NCBI GenBank assembly: GCA_016932615.1
Contig: JAFGCN010000018.1
Location: 3,495-67,494 of the forward strand
From: Candidatus Aenigmatarchaeota archaeon
GTDB lineage: Archaea > Aenigmatarchaeota > Aenigmatarchaeia > QMZS01
Direction: 5' to 3'
DNA: 64,000 nt
This document shows, one piece after another, positions 30,001-45,780 of this stretch. Under the pieces are notes generated by a model. It had not been told where the DNA came from. It worked only from the letters and a program-made list of their open reading frames with translations, and ran no database searches. The stretch's first letter is position 1; every line of letters starts with the position of its first letter. A program made the translations under genes and the position numbers.

Positions 30001-30374
30001 GGGCCCGTAGCTCAGTCCGTATCCCTTTCTTTCCAAAAGAAAGGTCTAAGGGTCACCCCAAAGAAAGGGTTTCCCTTGGCTAATTTGGTCAGGAGAATAG
30101 GATACGGGAGCAATTTGGATAGAGCGCTTGGCTTCGGTTGAGCCCTTTTCTCGCGAGAAAAGGTTTCAATCCCAAAAGAGGCATATTCCTGCTTCGCAGA
30201 AAGAATGCCTCAGGGGAAGGACTTGTTCAGCCAAAATGCCTGCATTCGTCCAGAAGTATCAGAAGGTACCAGGAGGTCGGGGGTTCAAAGTCAGGCTTTC
30301 TTTCTAAAGAAAGAACGCCCGACACCTCTAAGAAAGAACTCTTCTTGGAGAAGATGAAAATCCTCCCGGGCTCA
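30001..30374 (+). tRNA. tRNA-Arg(TCG) interrupted by three introns
   Basis: Exons are approximately 30001-30016 GGGCCCGTAGCTCAGT, 30115-30137 TTGGATAGAGCGCTTGGCTTCGG, 30268-30289 ACCAGGAGGTCGGGGGTTCAAA and 30361-30374 TCCTCCCGGGCTCA. Joined, they give a 75-77 nt cloverleaf. The acceptor GGGCCCG/CGGGCTC has one G-U, the anticodon stem is CTTGG/CCAGG, the T arm is GGGGG-TTCAAAT-CCTCC, and the anticodon TCG is at 30134-30136. Confidence 0.85.
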
Positions 30375-30381
30375 TTTTTTT
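30375..30381 (+). terminator. oligo-T tract directly after the tRNA-Arg 3' end
   Basis: ttttttt immediately follows the discriminator A. Archaeal RNAP terminates on T-runs. Confidence 0.4.
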
Positions 30382-30435
30382 AAAAAATTTGACATATGCC
30401 AGATTCCTTCAGAACGACAATTTGAGAGTGGGTTT

Positions 30436-30495
30436 TTCTTTGGGGTTGTCAGCCCTTTCTTTTTAGTGAAACTCCCGGAAAAGAAAGGTATGACC
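30436..30495 (-). repeat. solo copy of the tRNA-intron hairpin element (subfamily 1)
   Basis: ttctttggggttgtcagccctttcttt..(loop insertion)..aaagaaaggtatga is the reverse complement of the TCATCC-CTTTCTT-loop-AAGAAAGG-TCTGACAACCCCAAAGAA consensus. No tRNA exons surround it. Confidence 0.7.
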
Positions 30496-30556
30496 CCGGG
30501 CTTATATTTTAAAAACTGCAACCGAGGAAAACACACAAAAATACCCCTTAAGCAGT

Positions 30557-30606
30557 TTTCTTCTGGGGTTGTTAGACCTTTTCTTTTTCTAAAGAAAGGG
30601 GCTGAC
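30557..30606 (-). repeat. second solo copy of the tRNA-intron hairpin element (subfamily 1)
   Basis: ttcttctggggttgttagaccttttctttttctaaagaaaggggctgac has the same block order as the 30436-30495 copy. Confidence 0.65.
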
Positions 30607-30633
30607 TTTTAAGCTTTTAATCCTGAATTATCT

Positions 30634-30927
30634 ATGAAAAAGGAGGCAAAGGACCAATCAACCGAGGAAAAGGTCGCCCAATTGATGAAAAATTATGAAG
30701 CTTATGCTGACGAGGAGGGAATCCGGCTCAACCCAAACAAGGTAATCGTCGAGGCGGTAATCCGGCGGCTCGTCCATAACGAAAATATTTACGGCTGCGC
30801 CTATTGCCCCTGCCGGAAAGTCACCGGAAAAAAGGCGGAAGACAAGAAAATTATCTGCCCCTGCATATTTCACAGGGACGAAATCCGGGAAAAAGGCCAT
30901 TGCCACTGCATGCTGTTTGTAAGGTGA
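30634..30927 (+). CDS. ferredoxin-thioredoxin reductase catalytic-subunit-like protein
   Basis: CAYCPCR...IICPCIFH...GHCHCMLF is the CPC-x-CPC-x-CHC cysteine pattern of FTR catalytic chains. Confidence 0.7.
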   Translation: MKKEAKDQSTEEKVAQLMKNYEAYADEEGIRLNPNKVIVEAVIRRLVHNENIYGCAYCPCRKVTGKKAEDKKIICPCIFHRDEIREKGHCHCMLFVR

Positions 30928-30954
30928 TTTAAAAACATTTTTGCAGATTAAGGT

Positions 30955-32157
30955 ATGGCTTACCAACCGCCCCAAAAAATTCTAGACAAATACGCTGATT
31001 TATTGGTAAATTTTGCGCTGGGTGGAGGAAAAGGTGTAAAGCCGGGGGAAGTAGTATTCCTTCAGGTGCCTGAATGCGCTAAGCCCATGCTTGCCCCACT
31101 TCAGAGGGCGGTCCTCAAGGCAAAAGCGCATGCGATAATCCAGTACCTGCCTGAAGGCATTTCGAGGGATTTTTTTGAGATAGGAAGCGAAAAGCAGTTC
31201 ACATATTTCCCAAAAAAATTTATGAAGTCGCGAGTCGATACAATAGACCACAACATAAGCATTATTTCTGAAACAAATCCGCATGAGCTTGAGGGAATAA
31301 ACCCGAAAAAGATAATGGCCCGGCAGAATGCCTGGAAACCGTACCTGGACTGGATTAACGAAAAGGAAAACAAAAAGAAATTCACCTGGACTCTTGCACT
31401 CTATGGTACAGAAGGCATGGCAAAGGAGGCTAAAATGACCCTTAAGGAGTATTGGGCGGAGATCATAAAAGCATGCTACCTTGACAATCCAAATCCAATA
31501 AAGAAATGGAAGGAAATCTCGGCAGAGGTCAACAGAATAAAAAGCAAGCTGGATAAGCTCAAGATAAAAAAAGTCAGAGTCGAGGCCAGAGGAACAGACC
31601 TGACCATTGGAATCGGAAAAAAGCGCAAGTGGTGTGGCTGCGAAGGAAGAAACATTCCAAGCTTCGAGATCTATACAAGCCCCGACTGCAGAGACATAAA
31701 CGGACACATATCCTTCAATGTTCCGCTTTACAGATTTGGAAATCTCATTAAAGATATCCAGCTCGACATTGAACACGGGAAAATCGTAAGGGCAAAAGCA
31801 AAGCAAGGAGAAAAATTCCTGAAAGAAATGATAAAAACGCCTGGAGGAGACCACATCGGAGAGTTTTCCATGACTGACAAGAGACTTTCAAGAATCACAA
31901 AATATATGGCAACCACCCTATTTGACGAAAATGTTGGAGGAAAATTTGGGAATTCTCACTTAGCTCTTGGAAAATCCCTATGGAACACCTATGACGGCGA
32001 CCTGTCAAAAACCTCTAAAGGTGCGCTAATGAAGCTTGGCTTCAATGATTCCCCAATTCACGTAGACATCTTCAACACAGAAAACAGAAAAGTCACCGCA
32101 ACGCTCGAAGGTGGAAAAGAAGTCGTAATTTACAAAGACGGAAAATTCCAAGTCTGA
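30955..32157 (+). CDS. M29-family (AmpS/PepS-like) aminopeptidase
   Basis: 400 aa. The N-terminus KYADLLVNFALGGGKGVKPGEVVFL and the overall length are typical of M29 aminopeptidases. Confidence 0.6.
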   Translation: MAYQPPQKILDKYADLLVNFALGGGKGVKPGEVVFLQVPECAKPMLAPLQRAVLKAKAHAIIQYLPEGISRDFFEIGSEKQFTYFPKKFMKSRVDTIDHNISIISETNPHELEGINPKKIMARQNAWKPYLDWINEKENKKKFTWTLALYGTEGMAKEAKMTLKEYWAEIIKACYLDNPNPIKKWKEISAEVNRIKSKLDKLKIKKVRVEARGTDLTIGIGKKRKWCGCEGRNIPSFEIYTSPDCRDINGHISFNVPLYRFGNLIKDIQLDIEHGKIVRAKAKQGEKFLKEMIKTPGGDHIGEFSMTDKRLSRITKYMATTLFDENVGGKFGNSHLALGKSLWNTYDGDLSKTSKGALMKLGFNDSPIHVDIFNTENRKVTATLEGGKEVVIYKDGKFQV

Positions 32158-32193
32158 CCCTTGTATAAAACTCGCCGACGAGTTTATTGATTC

Positions 32194-32817
32194 TTATTTG
32201 TATAGGGTTTCTGCCCAGGCCTTCGCAAGCTCTTTACTTCCCATTTGAAAAGGGTAGTTAAGCCCTTCAAGCTCTTTTATCAATGCCTGCATCCCGTGAG
32301 GCCGGACAGGCATCAGCATTGTTTCAAGTTCCTCTGGCTCTTTCATGCGCTTCATCACGAGATAGTGCAGGTAAAATTCTGCAAATTCCTTTTTGGAAAG
32401 GGGCGTTGAGGAGTAAACCTTCGAGGCAATAAGCTCGACAAAAAACTGCTTCATAATCTTGAGGTACCCGTGCTTTGCCGCCCGAAGGTCAGCAAAAAAA
32501 TCCTGAACCTGCGGCACCAGGCGCGGGCAGTCTATCCTTTCCTGGATTTCCTTATTCACGCCTTCCTTTTCGTTCAGCAAAAGAAAGATAAACCGCACAA
32601 AGTAGCCCCGGAAAAGCTGGCGGTTTTTCACCTTTTCGTTTTCTGGGTTTACGAAAATCTCCATGTCCTTTCCGGTGTCTCCTTTCAGGAACTCGACCTT
32701 GCAGCTTTGGGTTATAATTATTCTCTCGAATCTTAGCGGGTAATCTAATTTTGTAATAAGGTCGGCAATCTCTTGCTTAAGAGACTCGTCGTCCATCTCA
32801 AAAACAAGATGGGTCAT
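32194..32817 (-). CDS. hypothetical protein
   Basis: 207-aa ORF with no recognised motif. Confidence 0.45.
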   Translation of the reverse strand: MTHLVFEMDDESLKQEIADLITKLDYPLRFERIIITQSCKVEFLKGDTGKDMEIFVNPENEKVKNRQLFRGYFVRFIFLLLNEKEGVNKEIQERIDCPRLVPQVQDFFADLRAAKHGYLKIMKQFFVELIASKVYSSTPLSKKEFAEFYLHYLVMKRMKEPEELETMLMPVRPHGMQALIKELEGLNYPFQMGSKELAKAWAETLYK

Positions 32818-32862
32818 AATATTCTTCTTCTGGTAATCTTAAGTGTTTAATCGCTCGTGTAG

Positions 32863-33729
32863 CTACTCCCGCCTGCAAAAAATATAGCTTAGGAAAGCAT
32901 ATACCAGCTTTGCTGCCAGGAAATCGGGCGCCTTGTTCTGAGGATTTGGCGAAAGCTCAACAAGGTCAAACCCCACAATTTCTTTTTCCTCGGCGAGCCG
33001 CTTTAAGAACTTAAGAACTTGGTACCACTGGAGCCCGCCCGGCTCGGGAGAGCCCGTCGAAGGCATGATTCCTGTGTCAAAAACGTCCAAATCAATTGTC
33101 ACATAGACCTTCTGCCCTGCGGACCTGACTGCCTCTTCAATCCAGCTCTCAGTATTCCAGAGGTCTTTGGCGTAGAAGATTTTTCCGGTTTCCGTTTTTT
33201 CGAGTTCCGTGTCATCCATGCTCCGGATTCCAACCTGAACAATATCTGCAACTTCCCTTGCCCTTGCCATCACGCTGGCGTGGCTTAAGGGATCTTCATT
33301 GTATTCGTCCCTCAGGTCCGTGTGGGCGTCAAGCTGGACAACCGTCAGGACGCCCTGTTTTGCGTGAGCCCTTATCGCGCCGATGCTCACGGTGTGCTCG
33401 CCTCCAAGAATCACAGTAAACTTGCCCTTTGAAGAAAGCCGCGCCACTTCAGCTTCAACTGTTTCCACAAGCTCTTTTGAACTATCCGCACCAATCGGCT
33501 CGGCTGTATAAATTCCCTTTTCACAAACTGAAAAATCCGTCTCGATGTCGTAAAGCTCCATGTACTGGGAGGCCTTGATTATCGCCTCAGGACCTTTTTC
33601 AGAGCCCTCTGTCCAGCCCCGAAGCCAAAAGCTGGTCTTATCAAACGGAACGGGAAGAATTACAATCTTGGCTTTTTCCAGCTCAGAATATTCTCCGGTA
33701 AGCCCTGCAAAGTTGAGTTTTTCTTCCAT
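32863..33729 (-). CDS. speB: agmatinase (arginase/ureohydrolase family)
   Basis: ILGGEHTVSIGA, QLDAHTDLRDEY and YVTIDLDVFD are the Mn-binding ureohydrolase motifs. Confidence 0.85.
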   Translation of the reverse strand: MEEKLNFAGLTGEYSELEKAKIVILPVPFDKTSFWLRGWTEGSEKGPEAIIKASQYMELYDIETDFSVCEKGIYTAEPIGADSSKELVETVEAEVARLSSKGKFTVILGGEHTVSIGAIRAHAKQGVLTVVQLDAHTDLRDEYNEDPLSHASVMARAREVADIVQVGIRSMDDTELEKTETGKIFYAKDLWNTESWIEEAVRSAGQKVYVTIDLDVFDTGIMPSTGSPEPGGLQWYQVLKFLKRLAEEKEIVGFDLVELSPNPQNKAPDFLAAKLVYAFLSYIFCRRE

Positions 33730-33797
33730 AATAATAGCGCCTAGGAAAGCTCAAAAAAAGAGTAAAACTCAATGAGGATGCAGTAAGCACAGTACTG

Positions 33798-34208
33798 CTA
33801 GAACTGAATTTTTCTGGCAGTACCTAGAACCAAGTCTCTCATTGGACATATCTGACAATCCGAATTTTCAGATAGATACTTTATTTGTTTATCCCTAATC
33901 TCCATAACATCTCCTGTTTCCAAGGGCAAAACTCCCGTGTGTTTTAATTGATTAAACAGATTGTACGTTGCTCCACAGGAATCGCAAATATCCCCCCTCC
34001 ATTTGAGGTAACTAACTTCGGCAATCTCTTTAGCAAAACTTGCGGTATCTAATCCGCCTAATCCTGAAGCATCACACCACCTCTCATAGGTATCACCGGG
34101 AAGTAATTTTAGATTAAGCGCCTGCCGCTCCAGAATTCTTTCTGGGGTCTTCTTGCCCGGCCTTCCGCACATCACAGGTTCGCCATCGCCAGAATATTCA
34201 AAAACCAT
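33798..34208 (-). CDS. hypothetical Cys-containing protein
   Basis: 136 aa. The pairs DICDSCG and DCQICP suggest a Zn site. Family unknown. Confidence 0.4.
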   Translation of the reverse strand: MVFEYSGDGEPVMCGRPGKKTPERILERQALNLKLLPGDTYERWCDASGLGGLDTASFAKEIAEVSYLKWRGDICDSCGATYNLFNQLKHTGVLPLETGDVMEIRDKQIKYLSENSDCQICPMRDLVLGTARKIQF

Positions 34209-34225
34209 AATCGCACCTCAAAAAC

Positions 34226-34492
34226 CTAAATTACGCCAAGCTTAACGGCAATATCTCCTGCAGGGCTTTCTGGCTTCAATTTAACGATTGCCTTCTTGCT
34301 CCCTGTCCGGTCAATAAGCGTGTTAACCTTTTCCACTTTGACCTTGAATTCCTCTTCAAAGGCCTGCTTTACCACCATCCGGGGCGTTTTAAGGACTTTC
34401 AGCTTGAAAATCAGCTTGTTTTCGCTCTCTATGAGCCGAACCGCCTTTTCGCTCGTAACCGGATGCTCCACTAGCTCCCAAAATGATACCAT
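34226..34492 (-). CDS. rpl23: 50S ribosomal protein L23 (uL23)
   Basis: 88 aa. HPVTSEKAVRLIESENKLIFKL...KVEKVNTL...KKAIVKL is a typical uL23. Confidence 0.85.
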   Translation of the reverse strand: MVSFWELVEHPVTSEKAVRLIESENKLIFKLKVLKTPRMVVKQAFEEEFKVKVEKVNTLIDRTGSKKAIVKLKPESPAGDIAVKLGVI

Positions 34493-34570
34493 AAGATAAA
34501 TAGCAAAAGATTAAAAGGGTCTAAAAGGCAAAAAATTCGCCCCTCTTGTATATTATAGCAGATATGTATT

Positions 34571-35344
34571 ATGGCTGATTCCTCAGCAAAAGGAGCATAT
34601 TCTGGATACTCTGAAAATAAAGGTGCGAAGGCACGGTCGGCAGGCAATGTCAATCCCCCCGTTGGCTTTGACCCAAATTACTTCAGGCAGACCTCCAAAG
34701 GAGATGCTAATAACCCGGAGGCAAAAAAAGCCGCCGAGGAATTATACGAGGCGCTTCCCCCAGCAATCCAAAACTATCTTGCCCGGGAGCAGGCGGCAAC
34801 TTCAAGAGCAAACTACGGCCCACCCACAAACCACAAAATCATGTCTGGTGTAGATGCGGCATATATGAAGCAGGGCTCAAAAAGCCCAGTTAACTATGCC
34901 GCCACTCCTGGAAAATCGCCGGGGCAGATGCAGGTCGCGCCAAATTATGATAGCAAAATGGCGCAGCAGCTGGGCCCGGGCAAGGGGCCAAATCCTCAGA
35001 TGCCCGTCCCCCCAAGCCCCGGACGAATGCTGGCTTCCATGTTTATCCCCTTAATCCCCTCAGCACTTGTTTACAAAGCCGGATTCAACATAGCCCAGTC
35101 AGCATTCCCTGGATTGGCATACTCTAGTCTACCCTATATTGGGAGTCTAGGAGGACCCGGAGGACTCGCCCTGGGAATCGGCATGGCCTACGGACTAACC
35201 AAGGTATCTGGAGCAGTTTTCAAGGGCGCAAGCAAAGTCGTCCAGAAAGTGTACCAGAAAAAAGACAAGCTGAATAAGGGCTACGAAGCCCTTCAAAAGC
35301 CAGGCGCCGCGCCGGCAGGCCCGATGCCTGCAAGAGGAATATGA
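34571..35344 (+). CDS. P1: protein with a P/G/A/N-rich disordered N-terminus, two Gly-rich TM helices and a basic C-terminal helix (unknown family)
   Basis: 257 aa. It is paralogous to 36427-37233: YDSKMAQQLGPGKGPNPQMP vs YDSGMASQLKANPQVP, and KVSGAVFKGASKVVQKVYQKK...GYEALQKPGAAP vs RVSGRIFKGVMKYSSGIMKK...GYERLAKAAALP. Confidence 0.6.
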   Translation: MADSSAKGAYSGYSENKGAKARSAGNVNPPVGFDPNYFRQTSKGDANNPEAKKAAEELYEALPPAIQNYLAREQAATSRANYGPPTNHKIMSGVDAAYMKQGSKSPVNYAATPGKSPGQMQVAPNYDSKMAQQLGPGKGPNPQMPVPPSPGRMLASMFIPLIPSALVYKAGFNIAQSAFPGLAYSSLPYIGSLGGPGGLALGIGMAYGLTKVSGAVFKGASKVVQKVYQKKDKLNKGYEALQKPGAAPAGPMPARGI

Positions 35345-35904
35345 CCGAAGGAGAAATCAAGGCAGGAGGAAAAACAATCCTGGAAAATGTGCAGGGTGCG
35401 TACCGACAGGAAAAATCAGCTCCACCTGTAGTGAATCGGGCAGGAATGGCGCAATACAACTCCTCAATTGCTTCGCCCTACCTGGCAAACACAGCCCCAT
35501 ACTCTGCTTTCCCCCCACCAGGCGCAAAGCCCGCCCAGCTATCCAAAAAAGCGCAGCTTGGAGTTTACCTTGCAATCGGAGCGCCAATTACATATTGGAT
35601 TGGCGCAAAAATCGCCCAAAAAAGCGAACCTGTGGCAGAATACCTGCAGGAACATGGAGGTGTTCTTGGAAGGGATTGGATTGGGCTCGAGCCGCTAGCC
35701 ATTGGAATCCCGACAATCCTTGGGCTTTACCTTGCAACAGATAAAATCGTCGAGCGCCTTAGGCCAACTGCAGAAAAAATTGCAAAAGGCCCTGCAAAAA
35801 AGCTTGTAGACGGATACAAAAAGCTGGAAGACCGCGCGGCAGATTCCCTTTTGGCCGCAGATTCCATAGTGCAAAAGGCCAAAAAAGCGCAGGAAAGGAG
35901 ATAA
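35341..35904 (+). CDS. P2: shorter protein with the same architecture (disordered N-terminus, two TM helices, basic helical tail)
   Basis: 187 aa. ATGA start/stop overlap with P1. TM segments are LGVYLAIGAPITYWIGAKIA and LAIGIPTILGLYLA. Confidence 0.55.
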   Translation: MTEGEIKAGGKTILENVQGAYRQEKSAPPVVNRAGMAQYNSSIASPYLANTAPYSAFPPPGAKPAQLSKKAQLGVYLAIGAPITYWIGAKIAQKSEPVAEYLQEHGGVLGRDWIGLEPLAIGIPTILGLYLATDKIVERLRPTAEKIAKGPAKKLVDGYKKLEDRAADSLLAADSIVQKAKKAQERR

Positions 35905-35907
35905 ATA

Positions 35908-36300
35908 CTACTCAAGAATTTTTCTGAGCCGTCCCGCTTTTCCCTCGCTAAGCTTCTTGTCGATCTCACCGGAAAGAATTTCAAAAAATTTCATCTGCCC
36001 ATCTATGAATTCTTCAGCTGCCTTCAACCCTTCCTTATCGTCTTTTGCGCATTTCTTTAGTGCCTTTTTAACCTCAGCAAAATATTCTATCCATGTCTCT
36101 GAAACCCCTTTTGCAACCTTCAGCCGCTCAAGATCTCCCTCTCGCTCTGCCTCGTCAATCGCCCTCAAAAGAACAGTAACCTGCTCGTTATACCTGCCTT
36201 CTGTTTCCTTGAGAAGCTGGTCAAAATCAATCTGAATGGGAGAAAAATCCTCCATTGGGCACGAGGTCTTCCTTGAAGCCCTCTTTTTACAGGCAGCCAT
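35908..36300 (-). CDS. H1: small all-helical protein, paralog of 37262-37654
   Basis: The start is trimmed to MAACKKRASRK (36300), giving 130 aa, the same length as H2. Shared blocks are LLRAIDEAEREGDLERLKVAKGVSETWIEYF and FFEILSGEIDKKL. It is convergent with P2, 3 nt apart. Confidence 0.6.
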   Translation of the reverse strand: MAACKKRASRKTSCPMEDFSPIQIDFDQLLKETEGRYNEQVTVLLRAIDEAEREGDLERLKVAKGVSETWIEYFAEVKKALKKCAKDDKEGLKAAEEFIDGQMKFFEILSGEIDKKLSEGKAGRLRKILE

Positions 36301-36426
36301 AACTTTCCTAAGGAAATATATATTCAAGACAGGTAAAGCTTGTTCGCAGATCCTTGCTTTCCTGCAAACCTCCCCAAACCACTCTGACAAACCAAAACCG
36401 CTTAAGTACTCCCGCCAGCTAATATT

Positions 36427-37233: not shown

Positions 37234-37261
37234 AAATTAAGAGCCCATAAAGCATTACGGC

Positions 37262-38614: not shown

Positions 38615-39319
38615 CTATATCCTAAAACCTAAAGGTAGTACTCTTTTTGCAGGAGGTGGTCTTATGCCAGTTCTTTCCAGAACAACACTTGCTTTGATGG
38701 GACGACCTATCAGAGAAAGACCTCGCTTCGCCCTCTCTTCCTCTTCCATAGCTCCCGTAAAGACTTCCTGTCCAAACTCTGGCTGCCTTATCTCACCACC
38801 AGAATACCTTAAGTCAAGCTTAAACCTACCCTCAGGGGTCCTGCTTCTTCCAACTACATCAAACCTAAGCAAAACATCGCGGTATTTAAGATATATCTCC
38901 TTTCCCATATCGCCCCGATACAAAAGATTACCTCCACTCAAAAAAGCCCCCTCCAGCTTGCTTGCCGGGTCTGAGCCAAGAATATGCCTCATTGCGGGGT
39001 CATCCCCACGGTAGTCGGACTCACCAAAAGCATAGTAAAAAGCCCTTTCAACCAACCCTGGATTATGCCCCGATTCATTGGAAGGGACAGTAACCTGTAC
39101 TTCATACCGACCCGGGCGATATATCCACCCTTTGCCTTTTAGGTAATCATATTTCCCAGGGGGGCGCCTTTTTTTCAGGGAAGGGGGAGGATCATAACCA
39201 TTATATGTATCAAACGCTTCTGTTGGAGCAGGTATCATCAGCATCCAGCACCGTATCCTGACATAATAAACTACTTGGATAAAAAATAAAATACACAATC
39301 GGGCAGAACCCGGGGGCAT
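38615..39319 (-). CDS. hypothetical protein (start uncertain)
   Basis: The track ORF starts at a GTG (39346). The first ATG is at 39319, with others at 39244 and nearby. N-terminal hydrophobic segment; no recognised motif. It occupies the position where rpl3 would normally precede rpl4. Confidence 0.4.
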   Translation of the reverse strand: MPPGSARLCILFFIQVVYYVRIRCWMLMIPAPTEAFDTYNGYDPPPSLKKRRPPGKYDYLKGKGWIYRPGRYEVQVTVPSNESGHNPGLVERAFYYAFGESDYRGDDPAMRHILGSDPASKLEGAFLSGGNLLYRGDMGKEIYLKYRDVLLRFDVVGRSRTPEGRFKLDLRYSGGEIRQPEFGQEVFTGAMEEEERAKRGLSLIGRPIKASVVLERTGIRPPPAKRVLPLGFRI

Positions 39320-39405
39320 CCCAACTCCAATAACACAAGCAACCACACCAGTTATAACAATTAAAGTGAACCACCCTCATGTCAAGAACACGGAGAGTTC
39401 AAGGA

Positions 39406-39651: not shown

Positions 39652-39735
39652 AATCTTCACCAGATAATTGGTTTACCATTCAGGGCTTAAATACTTTTCT
39701 TAGAACGGCAATAGTCGATAATCTGGGAATTCTGC

Positions 39736-40085
39736 CTATTTCCAGGTCTTGTCCAGCCCGGTTACGATCCCAAGTGTTGCGGAAATTCCCCCATAAAATC
39801 CGCTGTGCTCGCATCCATAATTGACGATATCCCAAAATGTTGCCGTTTGGTCCATCGCGGCCTCAACAGCGCAGAGGACTCCAAATGATGCAAGCCCTAC
39901 CGGGAGGGCATATCTAGTGAACTTAAGATCCCACTGCTGATCTTCATCCAGGTCATGAAACTTTGGAATTCGGGAGCCAATTTCCCCGGCAGCTCATTTC
40001 TGGGCGTTCCTGCCCCATAGAGAGAGGTACTCCTCCACAAGTCAAGCCCATGTCGCAACTTATCAGTAATGTATGCTTCCCCCAT
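39736..40085 (-). pseudogene. possible frameshifted small gene
   Basis: Frame A runs from ATG 40085 to the stop at 39897 (MGEAYITDKLRHGLDLWRSTSLYGAGTPRNE...). A second frame is open from about 39990 to the stop at 39736 and looks protein-like (..IPKFHDLDEDQQWDLKFTRYALPVGLASFGVLCAVEAAMDQTATFWDIVNYGCEHSGFYGG..) but has no start codon of its own. Confidence 0.25.
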
Positions 40086-40099
40086 AAATAGCAAATGGC

Positions 40100-40110
40100 T
40101 TATTTTTAAA
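40100..40110 (+). promoter_or_regulatory. TATA-box-like element upstream of tRNA-Leu(TAG)
   Basis: ttatttttaaa is centred about 26 nt upstream of the tRNA 5' end. A near-identical box precedes tRNA-Leu(CAA). Confidence 0.45.
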
Positions 40111-40130
40111 CAAAATTGAGCTTAAGTTAT

Positions 40131-40468
40131 GCGGGGGTCGCCAAGTCTGGTCTCATCCCTTTCTTAAAAGAAAGGTCTTACAACCCCAAAGAACGGGATA
40201 CCAGAAAAAGGTGCAAGGCTTAGGTGTCTTACCGGCACCTGCAGGTGCAATGCCCAGGAGCTTGGCTGAGAAACCTTGTGGGTAAATCTTTTTCTTTGGA
40301 AAAGAAAAAGCTTTAATCCAAAAAGAAATAAGATTCCACAATAGTCCCTACGTGAGTTCGAATGAAGCTTTTTCTCGCAAGAAAAAGCTCCAGGACCAAA
40401 AAGAGGCAGTTTCACCGCTTCGCGGATAAAACTTGCCGAATTGGTTTACGAAAGTCTCACCCCCCGCA
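40131..40468 (+). tRNA. tRNA-Leu(TAG) interrupted by three, and apparently four, intervening sequences
   Basis: Exons are approximately 40131-40152 GCGGGGGTCGCCAAGTCTGGTC, 40203-40224 AGAAAAAGGTGCAAGGCTTAGG (anticodon TAG 40221-40223), 40273-~40285 ACCTTGTGGGTAA, ~40336-40362 ..CCACAATAGTCCCTACGTGAGTTCGAA and 40455-40468 TCTCACCCCCCGCA. The acceptor GCGGGGG/CCCCCGC is perfect, the anticodon stem is CAAGG/CCTTG, and the T arm is GTGAG-TTCGAAT-CTCAC. Boundaries of the variable-arm insertion are uncertain. Confidence 0.8.
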
Positions 40469-40498
40469 TTATCTTTTAAGCCCTGCCAAGTACTGTAA

Positions 40499-40891
40499 CT
40501 ATTCAATTGTTTCGTTCGGGCTCGGAACCGCCGGAATCCAGACGCACTTGTTCTGACGGCACTTAATCTCAGTCTCCTTCGGCCCGGTTCCGCACTGATA
40601 GCTGCACTCCGCGCATTCCTCCCGATATTCAAGAACAGACTCTTCCAAGCGGGTAATGTTTGCATCAAGACTAACCAGGGTGTGGCAGCCAAAGGGGCAG
40701 CCAAATGAAGCAACGCTACAGTCAGAATCGCTCTGGCAGTGATTTTCCTCGCCCAGAAGCGCAAATAGATCATCCTGGCGGCCCTGGCAGGCGGTTTGTG
40801 ACACCTGCCCCGCAAAGTGCCCAATCAAGAATATAGCGCCAACCGCCATAAGAAAGACAAAAGAAACCGCAAAAAACACCTTTTTGCCCAT
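40499..40891 (-). CDS. small Cys-rich secreted or membrane-anchored protein
   Basis: The internal ATG (40891) gives MGKKVFFAVSFVFLMAVGAIFLIGHF (signal/TM). A Cys-rich domain follows (CQG..CQSDSDCSVASFGCPFGC..CAECSYQCG..CRQNKC). Confidence 0.5.
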   Translation of the reverse strand: MGKKVFFAVSFVFLMAVGAIFLIGHFAGQVSQTACQGRQDDLFALLGEENHCQSDSDCSVASFGCPFGCHTLVSLDANITRLEESVLEYREECAECSYQCGTGPKETEIKCRQNKCVWIPAVPSPNETIE

Positions 40892-40990
40892 AATTCTCTT
40901 ACCGCAGGATATAATTACCATTCGGTGCCTTATTGCCCCTAATAGATAGGTCAGAAGAAACCTAGCTTTAATATATCTGCAAGGGAAATT

Positions 40991-41515
40991 ATGAGACCTG
41001 AAATCGACTTGATTCCCCTTGATAATGTAGACCAAACGACCGTCGAGGAGCTTAAGCGCTCTCTCAAGGAGAAAGGGTGCATTGTACGGCTTTATGCAAG
41101 GACACACAGCCCTAAAACGGCAGAGAACCTCTACAGAAAGCAGTGCCTTGTAGACGTGATTGTCGACGCCCTGAAGGGGCTTTCAGGAAAGGTCATCGCC
41201 ATAACAGACAAGGACCTATACTCAAACAAGCTTAATTTCGTATTTATGTCGGTCCAGCCAAACGGGCCTGTAGTCCTTTCTACCCATCGGCTAAGGCCGG
41301 AATTTTATCAGGAAAGGCCGAACAATGACCGGACAACAAGCCGTCTCCTGAAAGAAACAATCTACTGCATAGGAAAGATGAATGGGATTGGTGACTGCCC
41401 TAATCCCAGGTGCATAATGCACAAGTCCGCTTCAGCCAGGGACATAGACTTCAAGTCCGAGGAATTCTGCAAGGACTGCAAGATAAACAATATTGTAGAC
41501 AATATGAGATTATGA
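40991..41515 (+). CDS. archaemetzincin (M54)-like protein lacking the HExxH catalytic motif
   Basis: VIAITDKDLYSNKLNFVFMSV...VLSTHRLRPEFY... is collinear with AmzA. The canonical HExxHxxGxxxC-x4-CxM-x16/17-CxxC site reads YCIGKMNGIGDC-PNPR-CIM-...-CKDC. The Cys4 site is kept, but H, E and H are replaced by Y, C and K. Confidence 0.65.
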   Translation: MRPEIDLIPLDNVDQTTVEELKRSLKEKGCIVRLYARTHSPKTAENLYRKQCLVDVIVDALKGLSGKVIAITDKDLYSNKLNFVFMSVQPNGPVVLSTHRLRPEFYQERPNNDRTTSRLLKETIYCIGKMNGIGDCPNPRCIMHKSASARDIDFKSEEFCKDCKINNIVDNMRL

Positions 41516-42372
41516 GCGCAAAAAAACAGTCCGGAACAAAGAAAAGAGCAAAGGCTGTCGACTTTGAGGAAAGTGCAAGTTTTTCCGAAGAGGAAGAAAC
41601 TGCAGAGGTTTTGAAAAGCGCCAAAAAGCCAAAGGGCGTGAGCAAAAAGAAAGAAACCGGGGCAAAGACAAAAAAGGCCAAAGCTCAGGAAGAAGCCACC
41701 ATTGACGAAGAATTTGCTGAAGAACGGGATGATGATTCCGGTGAGGAAGAAACAGACGAAGATTACGGGGAAGGAGATTACGACGAGGCAAAGCCAAAAG
41801 TATTCCAGGAAGAGCCGTTTTCAAAAGCCCCAAAAAAAGTCTATTCCGGAAAATTCTTTGAAAACAAAGTCCACATCTGGGGAAAGCAGGACGCCGAGGA
41901 GATTTATGACCTTGGCTGCTTTGGAAAGGTAGACGAGGAAAAAAATGAGCTTTCCTTTGAGGAAGCCCTTTTGCTGATGAGGCGAAACAAGCTTCGGGTT
42001 TCAAAAGATGGCACGGAGGTAAGCTCTGAAGAATTCTACCAGATTGCCTGCAATGCCGACAAAGAGTTTCCCTGGAAGTTCAAGGTTTACGAGGAGCTTA
42101 GGGGAAGAGGCCTTCTTGTCAGGACTGGCTTCAAGTTCGGCACCCATTTCAGGGTTTACGGCAGGGGAGTCAAGCTGAAGAGAGGGCCAAAGTCAGTAAA
42201 GGAGCACACAAAGTGGATTGTCCATGCAGTCCCCGAGAACTACACCTGCTCATTTCCAGAGCTTTCCAGAGCCGTCCGGCTGGCGCACAACATCCGGGCA
42301 AAGATGCTCTGGGCAGTTGTTGACGAGGAGGGAGATGTGACCTATTACGAGGTTTTAAGGAAGACTCCTTAA
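41512..42372 (+). CDS. endA: tRNA-splicing endonuclease EndA with a roughly 110-aa K/E/D-rich N-terminal extension
   Basis: The C-terminal GLLVRTGFKFGTHFRVYGRG...KEHTKWIVHAVPE...LSRAVRLAHNIRAKMLWAVV carries the EndA catalytic Tyr/His/Lys contexts. The N-terminus is MSAKKQSGTKKRAKAVDFEE...KKKETGAKTKKAKAQEE...DDDSGEEETDEDYGEGDYDE. Its ATG overlaps the upstream stop (ATGA). Confidence 0.85.
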   Translation: MSAKKQSGTKKRAKAVDFEESASFSEEEETAEVLKSAKKPKGVSKKKETGAKTKKAKAQEEATIDEEFAEERDDDSGEEETDEDYGEGDYDEAKPKVFQEEPFSKAPKKVYSGKFFENKVHIWGKQDAEEIYDLGCFGKVDEEKNELSFEEALLLMRRNKLRVSKDGTEVSSEEFYQIACNADKEFPWKFKVYEELRGRGLLVRTGFKFGTHFRVYGRGVKLKRGPKSVKEHTKWIVHAVPENYTCSFPELSRAVRLAHNIRAKMLWAVVDEEGDVTYYEVLRKTP

Positions 42373-42390
42373 ATAGCGGCTAATTAGATT

Positions 42391-42954
42391 ATGGATTTGA
42401 TTGCTTTGCTGCAGAATACGCTCTACTTTTTTGTAGCTTCTGGAATCATAGCTTTGTTGATTAAGTCATTGATTAAATTATACTTGGATAAAGACTTGGA
42501 AGCTTATAAAGAGAAACTGAAGCAAGAAACGATACGGTATTCAAAACTGCACGAAAAGAGAGCAGATGCTATAGAGGAACTATTTGAAAAACTTGTTGAT
42601 TATAAGAATTATGCTGAAGGTGTGAAATGGGCTAAGGAAAGTAATATTTCTGGAAAAGAATTGAAGGAAATCGAAGAAAATTTCAGGATAGCACATAGAA
42701 CATTTTTGGATTGTTTGAATAAAAAAGGCAATCTTTATTTCGGCGGCAAGACTCCAGAGCTTTTGGAAGCACTACACTTTGAAATAATGCGAACCAAAAC
42801 ACACACCGAGGCAAAATGCAAAGATGGAAAGAACATGGACTTTACAAGCTTAAAGAACATTCTCGAGGATATCAAAAACGCAGAAAAGGCAGTAGCAAAC
42901 TCAGAAAAAGAATTAATCAATGAATTTCAAACCATCTTGGGTGTCAAAAACTAA
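42391..42954 (+). CDS. hypothetical protein with an N-terminal TM and a coiled-coil region
   Basis: 187 aa. LYFFVASGIIALLIKSLIKL is a TM. The coding sequence is visibly A/T-rich compared with its neighbours. Confidence 0.45.
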   Translation: MDLIALLQNTLYFFVASGIIALLIKSLIKLYLDKDLEAYKEKLKQETIRYSKLHEKRADAIEELFEKLVDYKNYAEGVKWAKESNISGKELKEIEENFRIAHRTFLDCLNKKGNLYFGGKTPELLEALHFEIMRTKTHTEAKCKDGKNMDFTSLKNILEDIKNAEKAVANSEKELINEFQTILGVKN

Positions 42955-42970
42955 GCCCAAGAATCTTCAG

Positions 42971-43144
42971 CTAGTCGTACTTCACTTTCCAGGCCGAATA
43001 CGCCTTGTCTTTTCTCTCTTTCTCATTCCACCTTGTCAGTTCCATCAGCCGCACCCAATTCCTGCCCACCCTTTCCTCTCCCACCTGCCTGAAATCTCGC
43101 CTACTCGCTAAATCCCTCCCAACATCCACAACCTCAGCGCCCAT
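42971..43144 (-). CDS. unlisted 57-aa ORF (hypothetical, R/E/K/W-rich)
   Basis: Own translation: MGAEVVDVGRDLASRRDFRQVGEERVGRNWVRLMELTRWNEKERKDKAYSAWKVKYD. It falls just under the 60-aa cutoff of the track. A ttaaata box lies about 30 nt upstream, in the divergent promoter region shared with cbf5. Confidence 0.3.
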   Translation of the reverse strand: MGAEVVDVGRDLASRRDFRQVGEERVGRNWVRLMELTRWNEKERKDKAYSAWKVKYD

Positions 43145-43231
43145 ATGCGGCTTTATCTGTCGGGGTATTTAAGCTAAACTCCGGAAGGGAGCAAATGTCG
43201 AAATTTTTGGCTTCTAATTTGAAGATATTTT

Positions 43232-44002
43232 ATGGTATCAGGCCTCATTATTCTCGATAAACCCTCAGGCCCCACAAGCTTTGACTGCGTCGAGAGAGTC
43301 GGGAAAATATTTGGGGAAAAACGGTGCGGCCACACCGGGACACTTGACCCGAAAGTCACTGGGGTCCTGCTGGTCTTGGTTGGCGAGGCAAGAAAGCTCG
43401 TTCCCTTTTTCGAAAAAGCTGACAAGACCTACACAGGCATAATGCATATGCACTCCGAATTTGATACAGATAAACTACACGAGATAATTTACGAGTTTAC
43501 CGGAGACATAACGCAACTTCCGCCCCGGCTTTCAAGAGTAAAAAGAGTTGAGAGGCAAAGGACAATCCACTGCATGAAAATTGACAGAATTGAGGGGCAG
43601 GACGCAACAATAATAATCCACTGCCAGCACGGGACTTACGTCAGGAAGCTCTTCCATGACATGGGCGAAAAGCTTGGGACGGGCGCGCACATGAAATACC
43701 TTCGGAGAATCGCAGCCGGAAAATTCGGGATTGATGAAGCAGTAACTTTCGAGGAACTGGAAAAAGCCCCGGAAAAGCACCTAATACCTATGGAAGAGGT
43801 TATCGAACGGCTTGGAATAAAAAAGCTGGTTTTGCCAAAGGAAATGGAAAAGCAGGTTTCAAATGGTGTTCCGATAGTGCTTGAAACTCCAGAAGACTAC
43901 CCGTCAGAAGAGAAAATTGCAATATTCGTAGAAGAGAATCTAAGGGCACTTGGAAAGGAAAGGGGTAGAAAAGTGGCAATAGAGCGGCTTATTTTAATAT
44001 AA
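43232..44002 (+). CDS. tRNA/rRNA pseudouridine-55 synthase, TruB/Cbf5 family (short form)
   Basis: GLIILDKPSGPTSFDCVERV...CGHTGTLDPKVTGVLLVLVGEARKL (catalytic Asp in TLDP). At 256 aa it is shorter than typical archaeal Cbf5. Confidence 0.8.
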   Translation: MVSGLIILDKPSGPTSFDCVERVGKIFGEKRCGHTGTLDPKVTGVLLVLVGEARKLVPFFEKADKTYTGIMHMHSEFDTDKLHEIIYEFTGDITQLPPRLSRVKRVERQRTIHCMKIDRIEGQDATIIIHCQHGTYVRKLFHDMGEKLGTGAHMKYLRRIAAGKFGIDEAVTFEELEKAPEKHLIPMEEVIERLGIKKLVLPKEMEKQVSNGVPIVLETPEDYPSEEKIAIFVEENLRALGKERGRKVAIERLILI

Positions 44003-44015
44003 ATAGCCAAAAACC

Positions 44016-44171
44016 CTAGAAGATTATCCTCGAAAGAACCAAAATAAGGCAGATTCCAAAACCAAGAGCCAGAACGACTTCCGGCTTCAGGTTAATCCCT
44101 TCTTCAACCTCATCGCTGTAGTTTATAAGCCCTGCCATTGTCTGAGGCATCCTCTTTTTTTCCTGCGCCAT
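44016..44171 (-). CDS. preprotein translocase subunit Sec61beta
   Basis: Own translation (51 aa, not in the track): MAQEKKRMPQTMAGLINYSDEVEEGINLKPEVVLALGFGICLILVLSRIIF. This matches the archaeal Sec61beta pattern: basic N-terminus, AGL..Y.de, then a single C-terminal TM. Confidence 0.6.
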   Translation of the reverse strand: MAQEKKRMPQTMAGLINYSDEVEEGINLKPEVVLALGFGICLILVLSRIIF

Positions 44172-44221
44172 AATAGATAATCTCAGCAATAACTATATAA
44201 AAAAGAGGCAAAAACAAAAAA

Positions 44222-44440
44222 TTACTCCTTGGAAGAAGCAGGCCTGCTTTGGTACGGCTCTGGGTACTTGTTATCTCCTCCAAGGTATGCGCCGACATGC
44301 GCTCCTGCACCCACGCCCAAAGCTGTGTATAGGGCGTCCGAAGCAGTGACACCATCCGAAAGGTACGCCACAACACCGGCACCGACCAAGGCAAGCAAGG
44401 CCGTAGGCAGATAGTTTATGTGGTTAGATATTTTTCCCAT
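44222..44440 (-). CDS. small double glycine-zipper protein, family member 1
   Basis: 72 aa. ALLALVGAGVVAYL and LGVGAGAHVGAYLGG (small-xxx-small repeats). Confidence 0.5.
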   Translation of the reverse strand: MGKISNHINYLPTALLALVGAGVVAYLSDGVTASDALYTALGVGAGAHVGAYLGGDNKYPEPYQSRPASSKE

Positions 44441-44568
44441 ATTCTGCTTTCGATCAATGTATATTTGATATAAATGTAGCCCTCACTACAGAAGTAGTTC
44501 AATTGTAATGGAAGATAGCTCCCGCTGAATGGATGAAATAAGCAAAAATAAAGCAAAAAGAAAAGACC

Positions 44569-44853
44569 TTATGCCTTAGCCGCTGCTGGGTAAGCTGAGT
44601 ATGCCTTTGGACCAGACACGGCGTTCTCCGCGTAGCTTCCGACGGTACCACCGATAAGGGTGGCTGCACCTGCGTACAGGGCGTTCATGAAGCTAAGAGG
44701 GTCGACTGCCTCTGTGGTTGTTGCAGCGGTTGTTGCTCCCTCTGCGACGGTTTTTGCAGCCTCTACTGCGGTTGCAGGGTCAATAAGTGATGCGACTGCG
44801 TAAAGACCTGCCAAAGCACCCAAGGTTGCTCCGATGTATCCTATTTTTGTCAT
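44569..44853 (-). CDS. small double glycine-zipper protein, family member 2
   Basis: ATG at 44853 is preceded by a GGTGA Shine-Dalgarno-like box. (The track start at 44862 is the GTG inside that box.) IGATLGALAGLYAV and AGAATLIGGTVGSYA. Confidence 0.55.
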   Translation of the reverse strand: MTKIGYIGATLGALAGLYAVASLIDPATAVEAAKTVAEGATTAATTTEAVDPLSFMNALYAGAATLIGGTVGSYAENAVSGPKAYSAYPAAAKA

Positions 44854-45062
44854 TTTTGTCACCTAAATTTAATAGTATATTTTAAATAAATAGTTTTCGC
44901 CTGTGGAGTTACACTATAGTGCCTTTGTAGTTCAAAAGCATTACAAAAGTAATGTTTTTTTGGAACATATGCTCCTCTAGCCCACCAAATACCCTTTAAA
45001 GCCAAAAAAGCGCATGGCGCCAAAGACACTAAAAAAACCAAAAACAAGCCAAAATAAAACAA

Positions 45063-45329
45063 TTATGCTGTGGCCTTTGCTGACTCAACGCCGGGGTAAG
45101 CCATCGCGTAAGAAGGAGGGCGACTGTCGCCTCCGGCAACATACTCGCCAACCTTGTAGCCAAGTATGCCTGCAGCAGCGGCCTCCAGGGCCTGCCAGTA
45201 TCCAAGAGGGTCTGCTCCGGCAACGCCATCCACAATCTCTGGCCCTATAAGGTAAGCAGCGCCAAGCGCAGCCAGGCCGCCAACCACAAGCCCTGCAATA
45301 GTAGGACTTCCGCCATTATTTCTTGCCAT
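45063..45329 (-). CDS. small double glycine-zipper protein, family member 3
   Basis: 88 aa. IAGLVVGGLAALGAAYLIG and AAAAGILGYKVGEYVAGG. A GGTGA box lies 5-6 nt upstream of the ATG. Confidence 0.55.
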   Translation of the reverse strand: MARNNGGSPTIAGLVVGGLAALGAAYLIGPEIVDGVAGADPLGYWQALEAAAAGILGYKVGEYVAGGDSRPPSYAMAYPGVESAKATA

Positions 45330-45426
45330 TTTAGTTCACCTTTTTTTATAAGGCAATTCTGGTATTTATTGTTTTATTATTTTATCGTCACAATGCGCAT
45401 AGTAACTGCCAAACCTCAAAAAATGA

Positions 45427-45780
45427 TGCAGGAGGGCGGATTTTCGCCTATCCCTTTCTTTAAAAAGAAAGGTCTGTGGGTCACCCCAAAGAAAAAACTT
45501 TTCGTTCTTCCCAGGTGCCACATTATCCCCGTTCTGGTTAAAGAACGGAGATTACTTCGAACCGCCGAACTTACTAAAAGACTGGATGTCTCAATCGCCA
45601 TCGTTTCTGCGAAGCGAATTTGCTTCTTGGGGTTGTCAGACCTTCTTGCAAGAAGGGATGACCTTGAGTCCAGCGCCTTTTTCTGGTATACTATAACCCA
45701 AATTTTTGTTTCTTTGGGGTTGTCAGACCTTCTTTCTTTTCAAAGAAAGAAGGGATGAGACCAGACTTGGCTACTCCTGC
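45427..45780 (-). tRNA. tRNA-Leu(CAA) interrupted by three introns
   Basis: Minus-strand exons are approximately 45780-45759 GCAGGAGTAGCCAAGTCTGGTC, 45684-45661 AGAAAAAGGCGCTGGACTCAAGGT (anticodon CAA = + strand ttg 45664-45666), 45587-45556 (A)TCCAGTCTTTTAGTAAGTTCGGCGGTTCGAA and 45440-45427 TCCGCCCTCCTGCA. The acceptor GCAGGAG/CTCCTGC is perfect, the anticodon stem is CTGGA/TCCAG, the variable arm is long, and the T arm is GGCGG-TTCGAAT-CCGCC. Confidence 0.85.

Follow-up and report, generated by a model that had tools for sequence, protein, structure and literature searches.

Three multi-intron tRNA genes in an Aenigmarchaeota-like genome carry a modular family of predicted bulge-helix-bulge introns that turns over at the DNA level

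In the 64-kb stretch of contig JAFGCN010000018.1 analysed here (hereafter the window), three tRNA genes are interrupted by short, hairpin-bearing inserts. Our reading, to which we assign a probability of roughly 0.7, is that these genes are functional and harbour ten introns of the bulge-helix-bulge (BHB) type, nine of which belong to one homologous, modular family that has been inherited mostly vertically while undergoing turnover at the DNA level. An original prediction for this DNA had proposed a DPANN-like host. This was borne out by the class I lysyl-tRNA synthetase (LysRS), whose closest relatives, at 65–72% protein identity, come from metagenome-assembled genomes (MAGs) of Aenigmarchaeota/Aenigmatarchaeota and place the window as Aenigmarchaeota-like. 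Besides LysRS, its archaeal gene content includes CDC48, enolase and a DUF711 protein, among others.

Neither ARAGORN nor Rfam, the latter tried up to E ≤ 0.5, returned a tRNA from the raw 64-kb window, and the genes were therefore rebuilt by hand with a custom BHB scanner that uses a 4-bp central helix and places the cut 2 nt past the helix on each strand, the exons first being read by hand. Ten inserts each gave a consistent pair of predicted splice sites, with 3-nt bulges and a 4-bp helix between them, and after their removal in silico ARAGORN called tRNA-Arg(TCG), tRNA-Leu(TAG) and tRNA-Leu(CAA), which carry three, four and three introns, respectively. The introns occupy D-loop position 15/16 in the Arg gene and ~20/21 in both Leu genes, two differing positions within the same loop, together with 37/38 in all three genes, the variable-arm loop in Leu(TAG) and T-loop position 59/60 in all three. 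The reconstructed genes and introns are as follows, with a vertical bar marking a cut and L numbers designating the related sequences used for comparison.

30001–30374, plus strand: tRNA-Arg(TCG) gene with three introns, Arg(tcg) by ARAGORN after splicing, also beside lysRS in L024, L004 and L111.
30016–30113, plus strand: Arg intron 1, D-loop 15/16, 98 nt, with a sense subfamily-1 variant (GGGTCACCCC) at 30019–30066; central helix GCTC/GAGC, bulges AG|T and AA|T, inner helix CCGTATCC/GGATACGG of 8 bp.
30138–30267, plus strand: Arg intron 2, canonical 37/38, 130 nt, with a subfamily-2 module at 30139–30180 followed by a CTGCTTCGCAG hairpin; the fold is hBHBh', the outer helix being the 5-bp anticodon stem and the central helix CTTC/GAAG.
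30290–30360, plus strand: Arg intron 3, T-loop 59/60, 71 nt, with a subfamily-3 module at 30291–30336; the BHB consists of the 5-bp T-stem and central helix TTCA/TGAA.
40131–40468, plus strand: tRNA-Leu(TAG) gene with four introns, Leu(tag) by ARAGORN after splicing, a four-intron layout shared with L076 and L003.
40153–40206, plus strand: Leu(TAG) intron 1, D-loop ~20/21, consisting almost entirely of a subfamily-1 module (40153–40194); inner helix ATCCC/GGGAT.
40225–40272, plus strand: Leu(TAG) intron 2, canonical 37/38, 48 nt, without a family member; BHB CTTA/TGAG with a 7-bp outer helix, and the 3' 27 nt identical in L076 and L003.
40284–40341, plus strand: Leu(TAG) intron 3, variable-arm loop, 58 nt, with a subfamily-2-like module; BHB GTGG/CCAC with a 6-bp inner helix.
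40363–40454, plus strand: Leu(TAG) intron 4, T-loop 59/60, 92 nt, with a subfamily-2 module and a CCGCTTCGCGG hairpin; BHB of the T-stem and TTCG/CGAA.
45427–45780, minus strand: tRNA-Leu(CAA) gene with three introns, Leu(caa) by ARAGORN after splicing, its exons differing by 1 nt from the L083 orthologue.
45681–45758, minus strand: Leu(CAA) intron 1, D-loop, with a subfamily-1 module at 45709–45758 and junctions as in the Leu(TAG) D-loop intron.
45588–45662, minus strand: Leu(CAA) intron 2, canonical 37/38, 75 nt, with a subfamily-1 module at 45622–45661 and a CGCTTCGCAG hairpin; BHB CTCA/TGAG with a 6-bp outer helix, and its 5' ~51 nt (the module with the beginning of the CGCTTCG hairpin) matched exactly in the orthologue of L083.
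45441–45555, minus strand: Leu(CAA) intron 3, T-loop 59/60, 115 nt, with an antisense subfamily-1 variant at 45448–45494, 8 nt from the 3' splice site; BHB of the T-stem and TTCG/CGAA.

Folding of each exon–intron junction, suggested with the original prediction as a check, gave a 4-bp central helix at all ten sites, some of the structures being relaxed, and unconstrained minimum-free-energy folds of exon–intron segments recovered a BHB or relaxed BHB for most introns. That standard tRNA finders return nothing at these loci would suit decayed pseudogenes or assembly artefacts whose inserts are never excised, a possibility that we regard as very remote. The exons are near-invariant across genomes and cloverleaf-competent even though the intron interiors have diverged, and changes in the Arg anticodon stem between the window and L111 are compensatory, on which grounds the three tRNA genes look functional. 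The same gene structures moreover recur in independent assemblies, and among the genes seen in the window no further Arg(TCG), Leu(TAG) or Leu(CAA) gene could stand in for these three.

Excision of the introns would proceed by the usual archaeal steps: the pre-tRNA would fold so that each junction offers a BHB or relaxed BHB, a tRNA-splicing endonuclease (EndA) would cut both bulges and a ligase would join the exons. A gene for such an endonuclease lies 1 kb from tRNA-Leu(TAG).

41512–42372, plus strand: EndA, identified by Pfam PF02778 and PF01974.

The encoded protein is a single alpha-type unit, whose closest solved structures are those of M. jannaschii (1a79) and the N. equitans alpha subunit (3iey_A). 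A basic insertion of six residues immediately precedes the catalytic His, as in N. equitans but not in M. jannaschii, and the N terminus carries a Lys/Glu/Asp-rich extension of ~110 aa. Kaneta et al. (PMC5829648) link a Nanoarchaea/ARMAN-2-type loop in alpha-type EndA of DPANN archaea to increased disruption of tRNA genes, and we infer that the insertion in the window's enzyme is that loop.

The family itself was assessed by composition, by profile and by pairwise alignment. Its core, CCCTTTCTT-N(2-8)-AAGAAAGG, occurs three times in the window against an expectation of zero from 100 shuffles. A covariance model (R2) built exclusively from subfamily-1 copies of other genomes, and run over the whole window with filters off, retrieved all seven subfamily-1 copies with E-values from 2.7e-15 to 2.9e-10: 45709–45758 (minus; 2.7e-15), 40153–40194 (plus; 1.2e-13), 30019–30066 (plus; 1.9e-11), 30435–30493 (minus; 1.9e-11), 45448–45494 (plus; 5.1e-11), 45622–45661 (minus; 6e-11) and 30558–30605 (minus; 2.9e-10). 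The same model also detected subfamily 2 at 30139–30180 (3.3e-07) and a third subfamily at 30291–30336 (2.9e-04), so that the three subfamilies are evidently related. Its response was weak to the variable-arm copy (40284–40327; 0.013) and limited to the hairpin at 40368–40387 (about 1), and it made no other match with E<0.5 in the 64 kb. Pairwise alignment against shuffled controls agreed with the model: z reached 12.7 for the Arg anticodon intron against the Leu(TAG) T-loop intron (subfamily 2), 6.3–8.3 for the variable-arm intron against other subfamily-2 introns, and 21.9 for the Arg T-loop intron against the anticodon intron of tRNA-Ser(CGA) in L068 (subfamily 3). A family member is thereby recognized in nine of the ten introns, the exception being Leu(TAG) 37/38, and all 11 copies in the 64 kb lie within a tRNA gene or at most 240 nt from one, with none in the other ~60 intergenic spacers. 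These comparisons confirm, at the level of sequence, that the intron module family is real.

Every copy named in the original prediction is present, at the place given or within a few bases of it, including the antisense one expected near 45449–45497, which R2 found on the plus strand opposite tRNA-Leu(CAA). Its broader claim, that related elements sit at non-homologous tRNA positions and in both orientations, was likewise upheld, R2 hits being spread over D-, anticodon- and T-loop introns. The list was incomplete: the third subfamily in the Arg T-loop intron had gone unrecorded, as had the two copies outside tRNA genes at 30435–30493 and 30558–30605.

Modules of the family share a fixed order, consisting of a leader, a polypyrimidine/polypurine hairpin (CUUUCUU-loop-AAGAAAG), a C-rich tail and AAAGAA; the subfamily-1 tail reads GGTCTNACAACCCC-AAAGAA. 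Sense modules begin one base past the predicted 5' splice site (e.g. ...GGTC|TCATCCC and ...TTCGAA|G TCATCCC), and this start is fixed in 28 of the 31 intronic copies collected from all genomes, in D-, anticodon- and T-loop introns alike, which makes the module the conserved 5' part of a structured intron rather than a passenger inside one. The leader of 5–8 nt (TCATCC, TCAGCC, GTATCC, TGAAGC or TCAGGC) pairs with the intron 3' end as the inner BHB helix and covaries with it (TCATC/GATGA, CAGCC/GGCU, CCGTATCC/GGATACGG). The hairpin runs on directly from the leader, and since three of its stem positions switch from U-A to C-G on both sides it is evidently under selection; some of its loops are of GNRA type, such as GCAA and GAAA. 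A downstream GGGTT/GGGGT partner (GGGUUG) for the C-rich tail was found in 14 of 28 copies and in 20% of control windows, which makes the pairing real, though not universal. In many introns a short NNGCUUCGCNN hairpin (CUUCG loop) comes next. Site specificity is confined to the final ~6 nt of an intron, which complement four exon bases 2 nt upstream of the cut, as CGAA or CGAG in T-loops, GAAG or TGAG in anticodon loops and CCAG in Leu D-loops.

Exact-pattern scans of genomes and metagenomes recovered true copies from two related MAGs (JBNGEE01 and CAZJKT01) and 19 metagenome contigs. After duplicates were collapsed, ~39 non-redundant subfamily-1 copies were distributed over about six kinds of tRNA site as follows.

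Leu D-loop, 6; Arg/Lys D-loop 15/16, 3.
Position 37/38 (Leu, Ser, Gly), 8; T-loop 59/60, 12.
T-arm 53/54, 2; directly past the tRNA-Cys discriminator base, 3; stand-alone, 5.

Of the 31 copies inside introns, three run antisense to the host tRNA, and four of the five stand-alone copies from all sequences have a tRNA gene within 1 kb. More distant Aenigmarchaeota, with LysRS 53–55% identical (L001 and L004), show the same architecture in D- and T-loop introns, from which it follows that the family is old. Bacterial and other matches to the scan patterns had no polypyrimidine/polypurine hairpin and were dropped as chance. Two scans of IMG/VR found no true copy in viral contigs; as a candidate viral or plasmid vector they yielded only a conserved phage-gene stretch that has the fixed pattern bases but no hairpin, together with scattered chance matches.

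Several copies in relatives occupy less usual settings. Those at the T-stem position 53/T54 site are L094 7492–7537 (minus) and L090 2449–2493 (minus), in tRNA-Ser(GCT) and another tRNA. In three or four genomes, only a single G separates discriminator U73 of tRNA-Cys(GCA) from a sense subfamily-1 module downstream (L078 984–1028, minus; L093 1225–1267, minus; L107 4157–4208, plus), which has the usual downstream hairpins and no visible 3' exon; the T-loop of this tRNA is odd (TGCGACT). On the minus strand of the metagenome contig L085, at ~260–330 as oriented, a tRNA-Leu(CAA) breaks off after its first 20 nt; a subfamily-1 module comes next, and the >400 nt of AT-rich DNA beyond the module hold nothing more of the tRNA. 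The locus could be a pseudogene or a split gene, or the assembly may be broken there. A long-hairpin form of subfamily 1 (~95 nt, with ...CTTCATCAGCGAGAAGCAACGCGCG...GCAAATGATGGAG conserved in its interior) was observed at L076 320–420, L068 5121–5214 (minus) and L083 2640–2740, where it occupies the Leu(TAG) D-loop, the Ser(CGA) T-loop and the Leu(CAA) T-loop, respectively. At ~545–575 of L071, a tRNA-Leu of the JBNGEE MAG has an anticodon loop that apparently reads CTAAGGA, that is, anticodon AAG (A34), which would be unusual for an archaeon.

Comparison of orthologous genes shows that introns and modules change at the DNA level. The tRNA-Arg(TCG) gene lies in the lysRS neighbourhood in four genomes, with extra genes between the two in L111, and its introns compare as follows.

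Window: D-loop, subfamily-1 variant in sense; 37/38, subfamily 2; T-loop, subfamily 3.
L111: D-loop, the same intron with its interior inverted; 37/38, subfamily 2; T-loop, subfamily 3 together with a 3'-terminal family member in antisense.
L024: D-loop, no intron; 37/38, subfamily 2; T-loop, a TCAGCC-type subfamily-1 module.
L004: D-loop, an unrelated intron; 37/38, no intron; T-loop, a subfamily-2-like module.

The inversion in L111 is clear from alignment of the Arg D-loop introns, in which the window sequence scores 43 (80 identities) against the reverse complement of its L111 counterpart, compared with 12.5 in the forward direction and -9 ± 4 for shuffles. Its break-points coincide with the 8-bp inverted repeat whose arms pair as the inner BHB helix, and the BHB accordingly survives the flip. 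The Leu genes show comparable changes. The L083 orthologue of tRNA-Leu(CAA) has an intact D-loop without an intron, a near-identical 37/38 intron and, in the T-loop, a long-hairpin module in sense, as against the antisense variant in the window; the T-loop site of tRNA-Leu(TAG) holds subfamily 2 in the window and subfamily 1 in L076. Units also recur between different tRNAs: the Arg D-loop intron of the window is identical at 94 of 98 positions to the D-loop intron of tRNA-Lys(TTT) in L094, which has the same 5' exon, and in L110 another tRNA carries, again in its T-loop intron, the antisense variant together with GGCGAAAA|T seen in the Leu(CAA) T-loop intron.

We infer from these comparisons an old family, inherited mainly vertically, in which whole introns are gained or lost at the DNA level and modules pass from one intron to another, the probable routes being gene conversion or recombination among tRNA genes that share exon or module sequence. 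Part of the spread is accounted for by gene conversion, since several of the D-loop copies lie at homologous sites in paralogues of tRNA-Leu. Intron interiors would, in addition, invert between their terminal inverted repeats and so give rise to the 'antisense' copies.

The original prediction had instead attributed the pattern to DNA-level mobility of an intron-forming or miniature inverted-repeat transposable element (MITE)-like element that inserts in either orientation and is tolerated where it can be spliced. The DNA-level part of this proposal is supported by the presence/absence differences, swaps and inversion among orthologues, whereas the MITE-like part finds neither target-site duplications nor dispersed copies. 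The copies do resemble MITEs in being short, non-coding, hairpin-centred and numerous, in having inverted-repeat ends and in occurring in both orientations; five copies stand alone, and orthologous loci differ in content, including a spacer downstream of tRNA-Arg that holds two copies and is ~215 nt longer than in L024. In addition, the variable base N of GGTCTNACAACCCC is uniform within a MAG or metagenome (A in 7 of 7 copies of the JBNGEE MAG, G in 4 of 4 contigs of one metagenome), a hint of within-genome homogenization. Yet filled and empty sites at the Arg D-loop (window versus L024) and the Leu(CAA) D-loop (window versus L083) show no direct repeat. Instead, the intron 3' end is the reverse complement of 4–6 exon bases, as a BHB requires, so that exon bases in gained introns are copied inverted, not direct, and each 3' end is tailored to its site. 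The inverted repeats of 5–8 bp at the intron ends constitute the inner BHB helix, and the few introns with inverted family members at both ends (as in the Arg T-loop of L111) fit a MITE and the needs of a BHB equally well. Sense copies start exactly at the splice site, which thus forms the boundary of the element, and dispersal into the window's other intergenic spacers is lacking. No transposase, integrase or reverse transcriptase was present among the 20 window open reading frames (ORFs) screened, and the viral contigs scanned held no true copy. Opposite orientation is better explained by in-situ inversion between the terminal inverted repeats of an intron than by insertion in either orientation. 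A classical MITE model thus fails its defining tests, and we consider it improbable.

Insertion of another kind is raised by the DNA downstream of tRNA-Arg. The spacer between this gene and the ferredoxin-thioredoxin-reductase beta ORF (30634–30927) measures 259 nt in the window, where it contains two minus-strand copies, and 43 nt in L024. Its features are as follows.

30435–30493, minus strand: subfamily-1 copy standing alone downstream of tRNA-Arg and in antisense to it, its hairpin loop enlarged.
30495–30503, plus strand: CCCGGGCTT, a repeat of the tRNA-Arg 3' end (30365–30373), abutting the preceding copy.
30558–30605, minus strand: second stand-alone subfamily-1 copy, with leader TCAGCC, just upstream of the promoter region of the reductase ORF.

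L109/L111 have a copy at the place of the first of these; L024, with its 43-nt spacer, has none. Introns could also arrive together with their 3' exons, by site-specific integration or by replacement of a segment in the 3' part of a tRNA gene, after the manner of integrative elements that bear a duplicate of the tRNA 3' end, and the old intron end and 3' exon would then be displaced downstream. At three loci a tRNA is indeed followed, 130–150 nt downstream, by an antisense family member and then by a second tRNA 3' end from about position 60. In L015 an exact 16-nt repeat, ATCCCCTCGGGCCCGC, occurs at 9674–9689 and 9807–9822 after an intron-less tRNA-Lys, and in L090 the tRNA 3' end is repeated at 2262–2270/2412–2420 (9 nt exact, ~11/13 overall); the window provides a weak third case (30495–30503 versus 30365–30373). 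This pattern looks like replacement of the 3' part of a T-loop-interrupted gene, with the second copy resembling a displaced old 3' exon, and it suggests such a route for T-loop introns only. Set against it, the supposed insert measures just 100–260 nt and lacks an integrase. The window's repeat extends over only 8–9 nt, and its 8-mer, CCCGGGCT, is found five times in the window on both strands, so that the 9-nt repeat is by itself too short to carry weight and only suggestive. L111, moreover, has the syntenic stand-alone copy but not the repeat. Integration also leaves the D-loop, anticodon and variable-loop introns unexplained, and as a general account we judge it unlikely. A minus-strand tRNA reading downward from 30501 (GCCCGGGG|TCATACC) was considered by analogy with the T-arm 53/54 intron of L094 (CCCGGGG|TCATCCC) and rejected, as no downstream exons were found.

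Several points weigh against our preferred reading of an old, mostly vertically inherited intron family with DNA-level turnover. The splice sites are predictions from sequence, and in both Leu D-loop introns their register is ambiguous by 1–2 nt because the 6-bp helix TCTGGT/ACCAGA allows three 4-bp central helices. Some BHBs are relaxed, with no outer helix at the Arg D-loop and weak inner helices at Leu(CAA) 37/38 and in the T-loop of the same gene; such junctions would need an EndA of broad specificity, a breadth that is putative for this enzyme. No recombination or insertion intermediate was observed, and of each related genome a few kb were examined. High-scoring copies persist outside tRNA genes, which vertical descent with occasional recombination does not itself explain. 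Nor does it explain module identities of ~95–100% between genomes whose lysRS genes show 66–72% DNA identity.

This conservation deserves particular attention. Subfamily 3 is identical at 49 of 49 nt between the window and L111 and nearly the same in a different tRNA, at a different position, in L068; in the subfamily-1 variant the differences amount to a single substitution and a single indel across ~52 nt; and the subfamily-1 leader and tail are near-invariant in all genomes compared. Coding DNA of the relatives, by comparison, is 64–72% identical to that of the window. Conservation of this strength implies one of three things, namely purifying selection, continual homogenization or recent exchange between genomes, and the uniformity of base N described above offers a hint of the second. 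Purifying selection would make the modules functional, sequence-specific signals carried as a portable cassette, an explanation that overlaps with our own and that we think less likely than not. They might act in cis, next to the 5' splice site, as a handle by which this lineage's EndA, or a cofactor, is drawn to or aligned on sites that are non-canonical or relaxed, or the excised introns might persist as stable or circular RNAs with a function of their own. Conservation past the neutral expectation, as in subfamily 3, is what such signals would show, and so are the constant offset from the 5' splice site, whether the intron lies in the D-, anticodon or T-loop, the compensated stem changes, the GNRA-type loops of some copies and the retention of high-scoring stand-alone copies at a syntenic spot; the long, partly basic N-terminal extension of EndA could also be brought into this account. 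A single protein-binding consensus sits poorly with three subfamilies that differ in leader and tail, the Leu(TAG) 37/38 intron has no module at all, and antisense copies would give a different RNA.

Among Rfam families and the RNA classes considered, no counterpart to the modules was found. An archaeal tRNA-Trp intron carries a box C/D guide RNA and is thus a precedent for a conserved, structured RNA inside a BHB intron, but the modules differ from it in having no C/D or H/ACA boxes, no identified complementarity to a target and no Rfam match: over the window, Rfam gave nothing at gathering score or at E ≤ 0.5, and a lax local scan produced noise far below gathering scores. Box C/D, H/ACA, K-turn and hammerhead identities were each considered and set aside, as the modules have no RUGAUGA box, an apparent 'CUGA' depends on the variable N of GGTCTNACAACCCC and the hairpin has no internal pocket. 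On a more speculative view, which we think doubtful, the modules would be portable 'splice-site cassettes', sequence-conserved, two-fold-symmetric and invertible RNA/DNA units that supply both the inner BHB helix and a handle for EndA or a mobility factor, and that are kept by selection across Aenigmarchaeota rather than by descent alone; such units could turn nearly every tRNA position into the site of a spliceable intron, or serve by themselves as processing or regulatory signals.

The closest known system is the one to which the original prediction appealed as precedent, and rightly so in kind: the transposed BHB tRNA intron families of Thermoproteales (Sugahara et al. 2008; Fujishima et al. 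2010), as summarized in PMC4090602. Common to the two systems are several introns per gene, highly similar introns at differing positions of non-orthologous tRNAs, presence/absence or replacement among orthologues and an inferred DNA-level gain of introns after speciation. The systems differ in host, DPANN/Aenigmarchaeota here instead of Crenarchaeota, and in endonuclease, a single alpha-type EndA with an N. equitans-like insertion in place of an (alpha-beta)2 enzyme with a Crenarchaea-specific loop. By the account of the review, three further traits are particular to the present family: leader–hairpin–tail modules conserved across genomes that share just 66–72% identity in coding DNA, an intron interior inverted between orthologues, and stand-alone copies. 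The four introns of tRNA-Leu(TAG) also exceed the 'up to three' given for tRNA introns in PMC8450103.

Intron-rich tRNA sets have been described for DPANN and Asgard archaea (Kaneta et al. 2018, PMC5829648; Valentin-Alvarado et al. 2024, PMC11291895). As here, many introns are non-canonical or multiple and standard tools predict the tRNA sets incompletely, with a link to EndA insertions in DPANN; the portions of these papers drawn on give counts and positions rather than a shared intron family, orientation changes or stand-alone copies, and Aenigmarchaeota do not figure among the lineages analysed in them. The split and permuted tRNA genes of Nanoarchaeum, Caldivirga and Thermofilum (PMC3218864) likewise involve BHB processing by a broad-specificity EndA and disruption at many tRNA positions, but the genes reported here are contiguous and their introns lie in cis. 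In the literature searched, neither a family of this kind nor tRNA introns in general were described for Aenigmarchaeota, which is not proof of absence.

On the gain of introns at arbitrary positions of archaeal tRNAs, Thermoproteales have furnished the only well-described case of 'transposition'. This clade would add a second, independent system of intron spread with a cleaner anatomy, in which the module lies exactly at the 5' splice site and a four-intron tRNA is conserved in three genomes. Its filled and empty sites, module swaps and inverted interior make the mechanism testable, whether it is gene conversion, inversion at inverted repeats or integration, and the very strong conservation of the modules makes it conceivable that the tRNA introns of this clade are functional. 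Because tRNAs with multiple introns escape standard tools, such genomes appear to have no tRNAs, and DPANN tRNA sets consequently look incomplete; a covariance model of the module provides a practical handle for finding them.

Some further observations concern the surroundings of these genes. Several sizeable ORFs without a Pfam match lie near the tRNA genes at 25834–27453 (minus), 38615–39346 (minus), 40499–41107 (minus), 42391–42954 (plus) and 46656–47234 (plus). A 130-nt direct repeat of 73% identity (61997–62126/62822–62951) falls within the CDC48 gene and corresponds to its two AAA domains, an ordinary internal duplication. A gene for a Cbf5/TruB-type pseudouridine synthase occupies 43232–44002 (plus), ~0.9 kb beyond the EndA gene.

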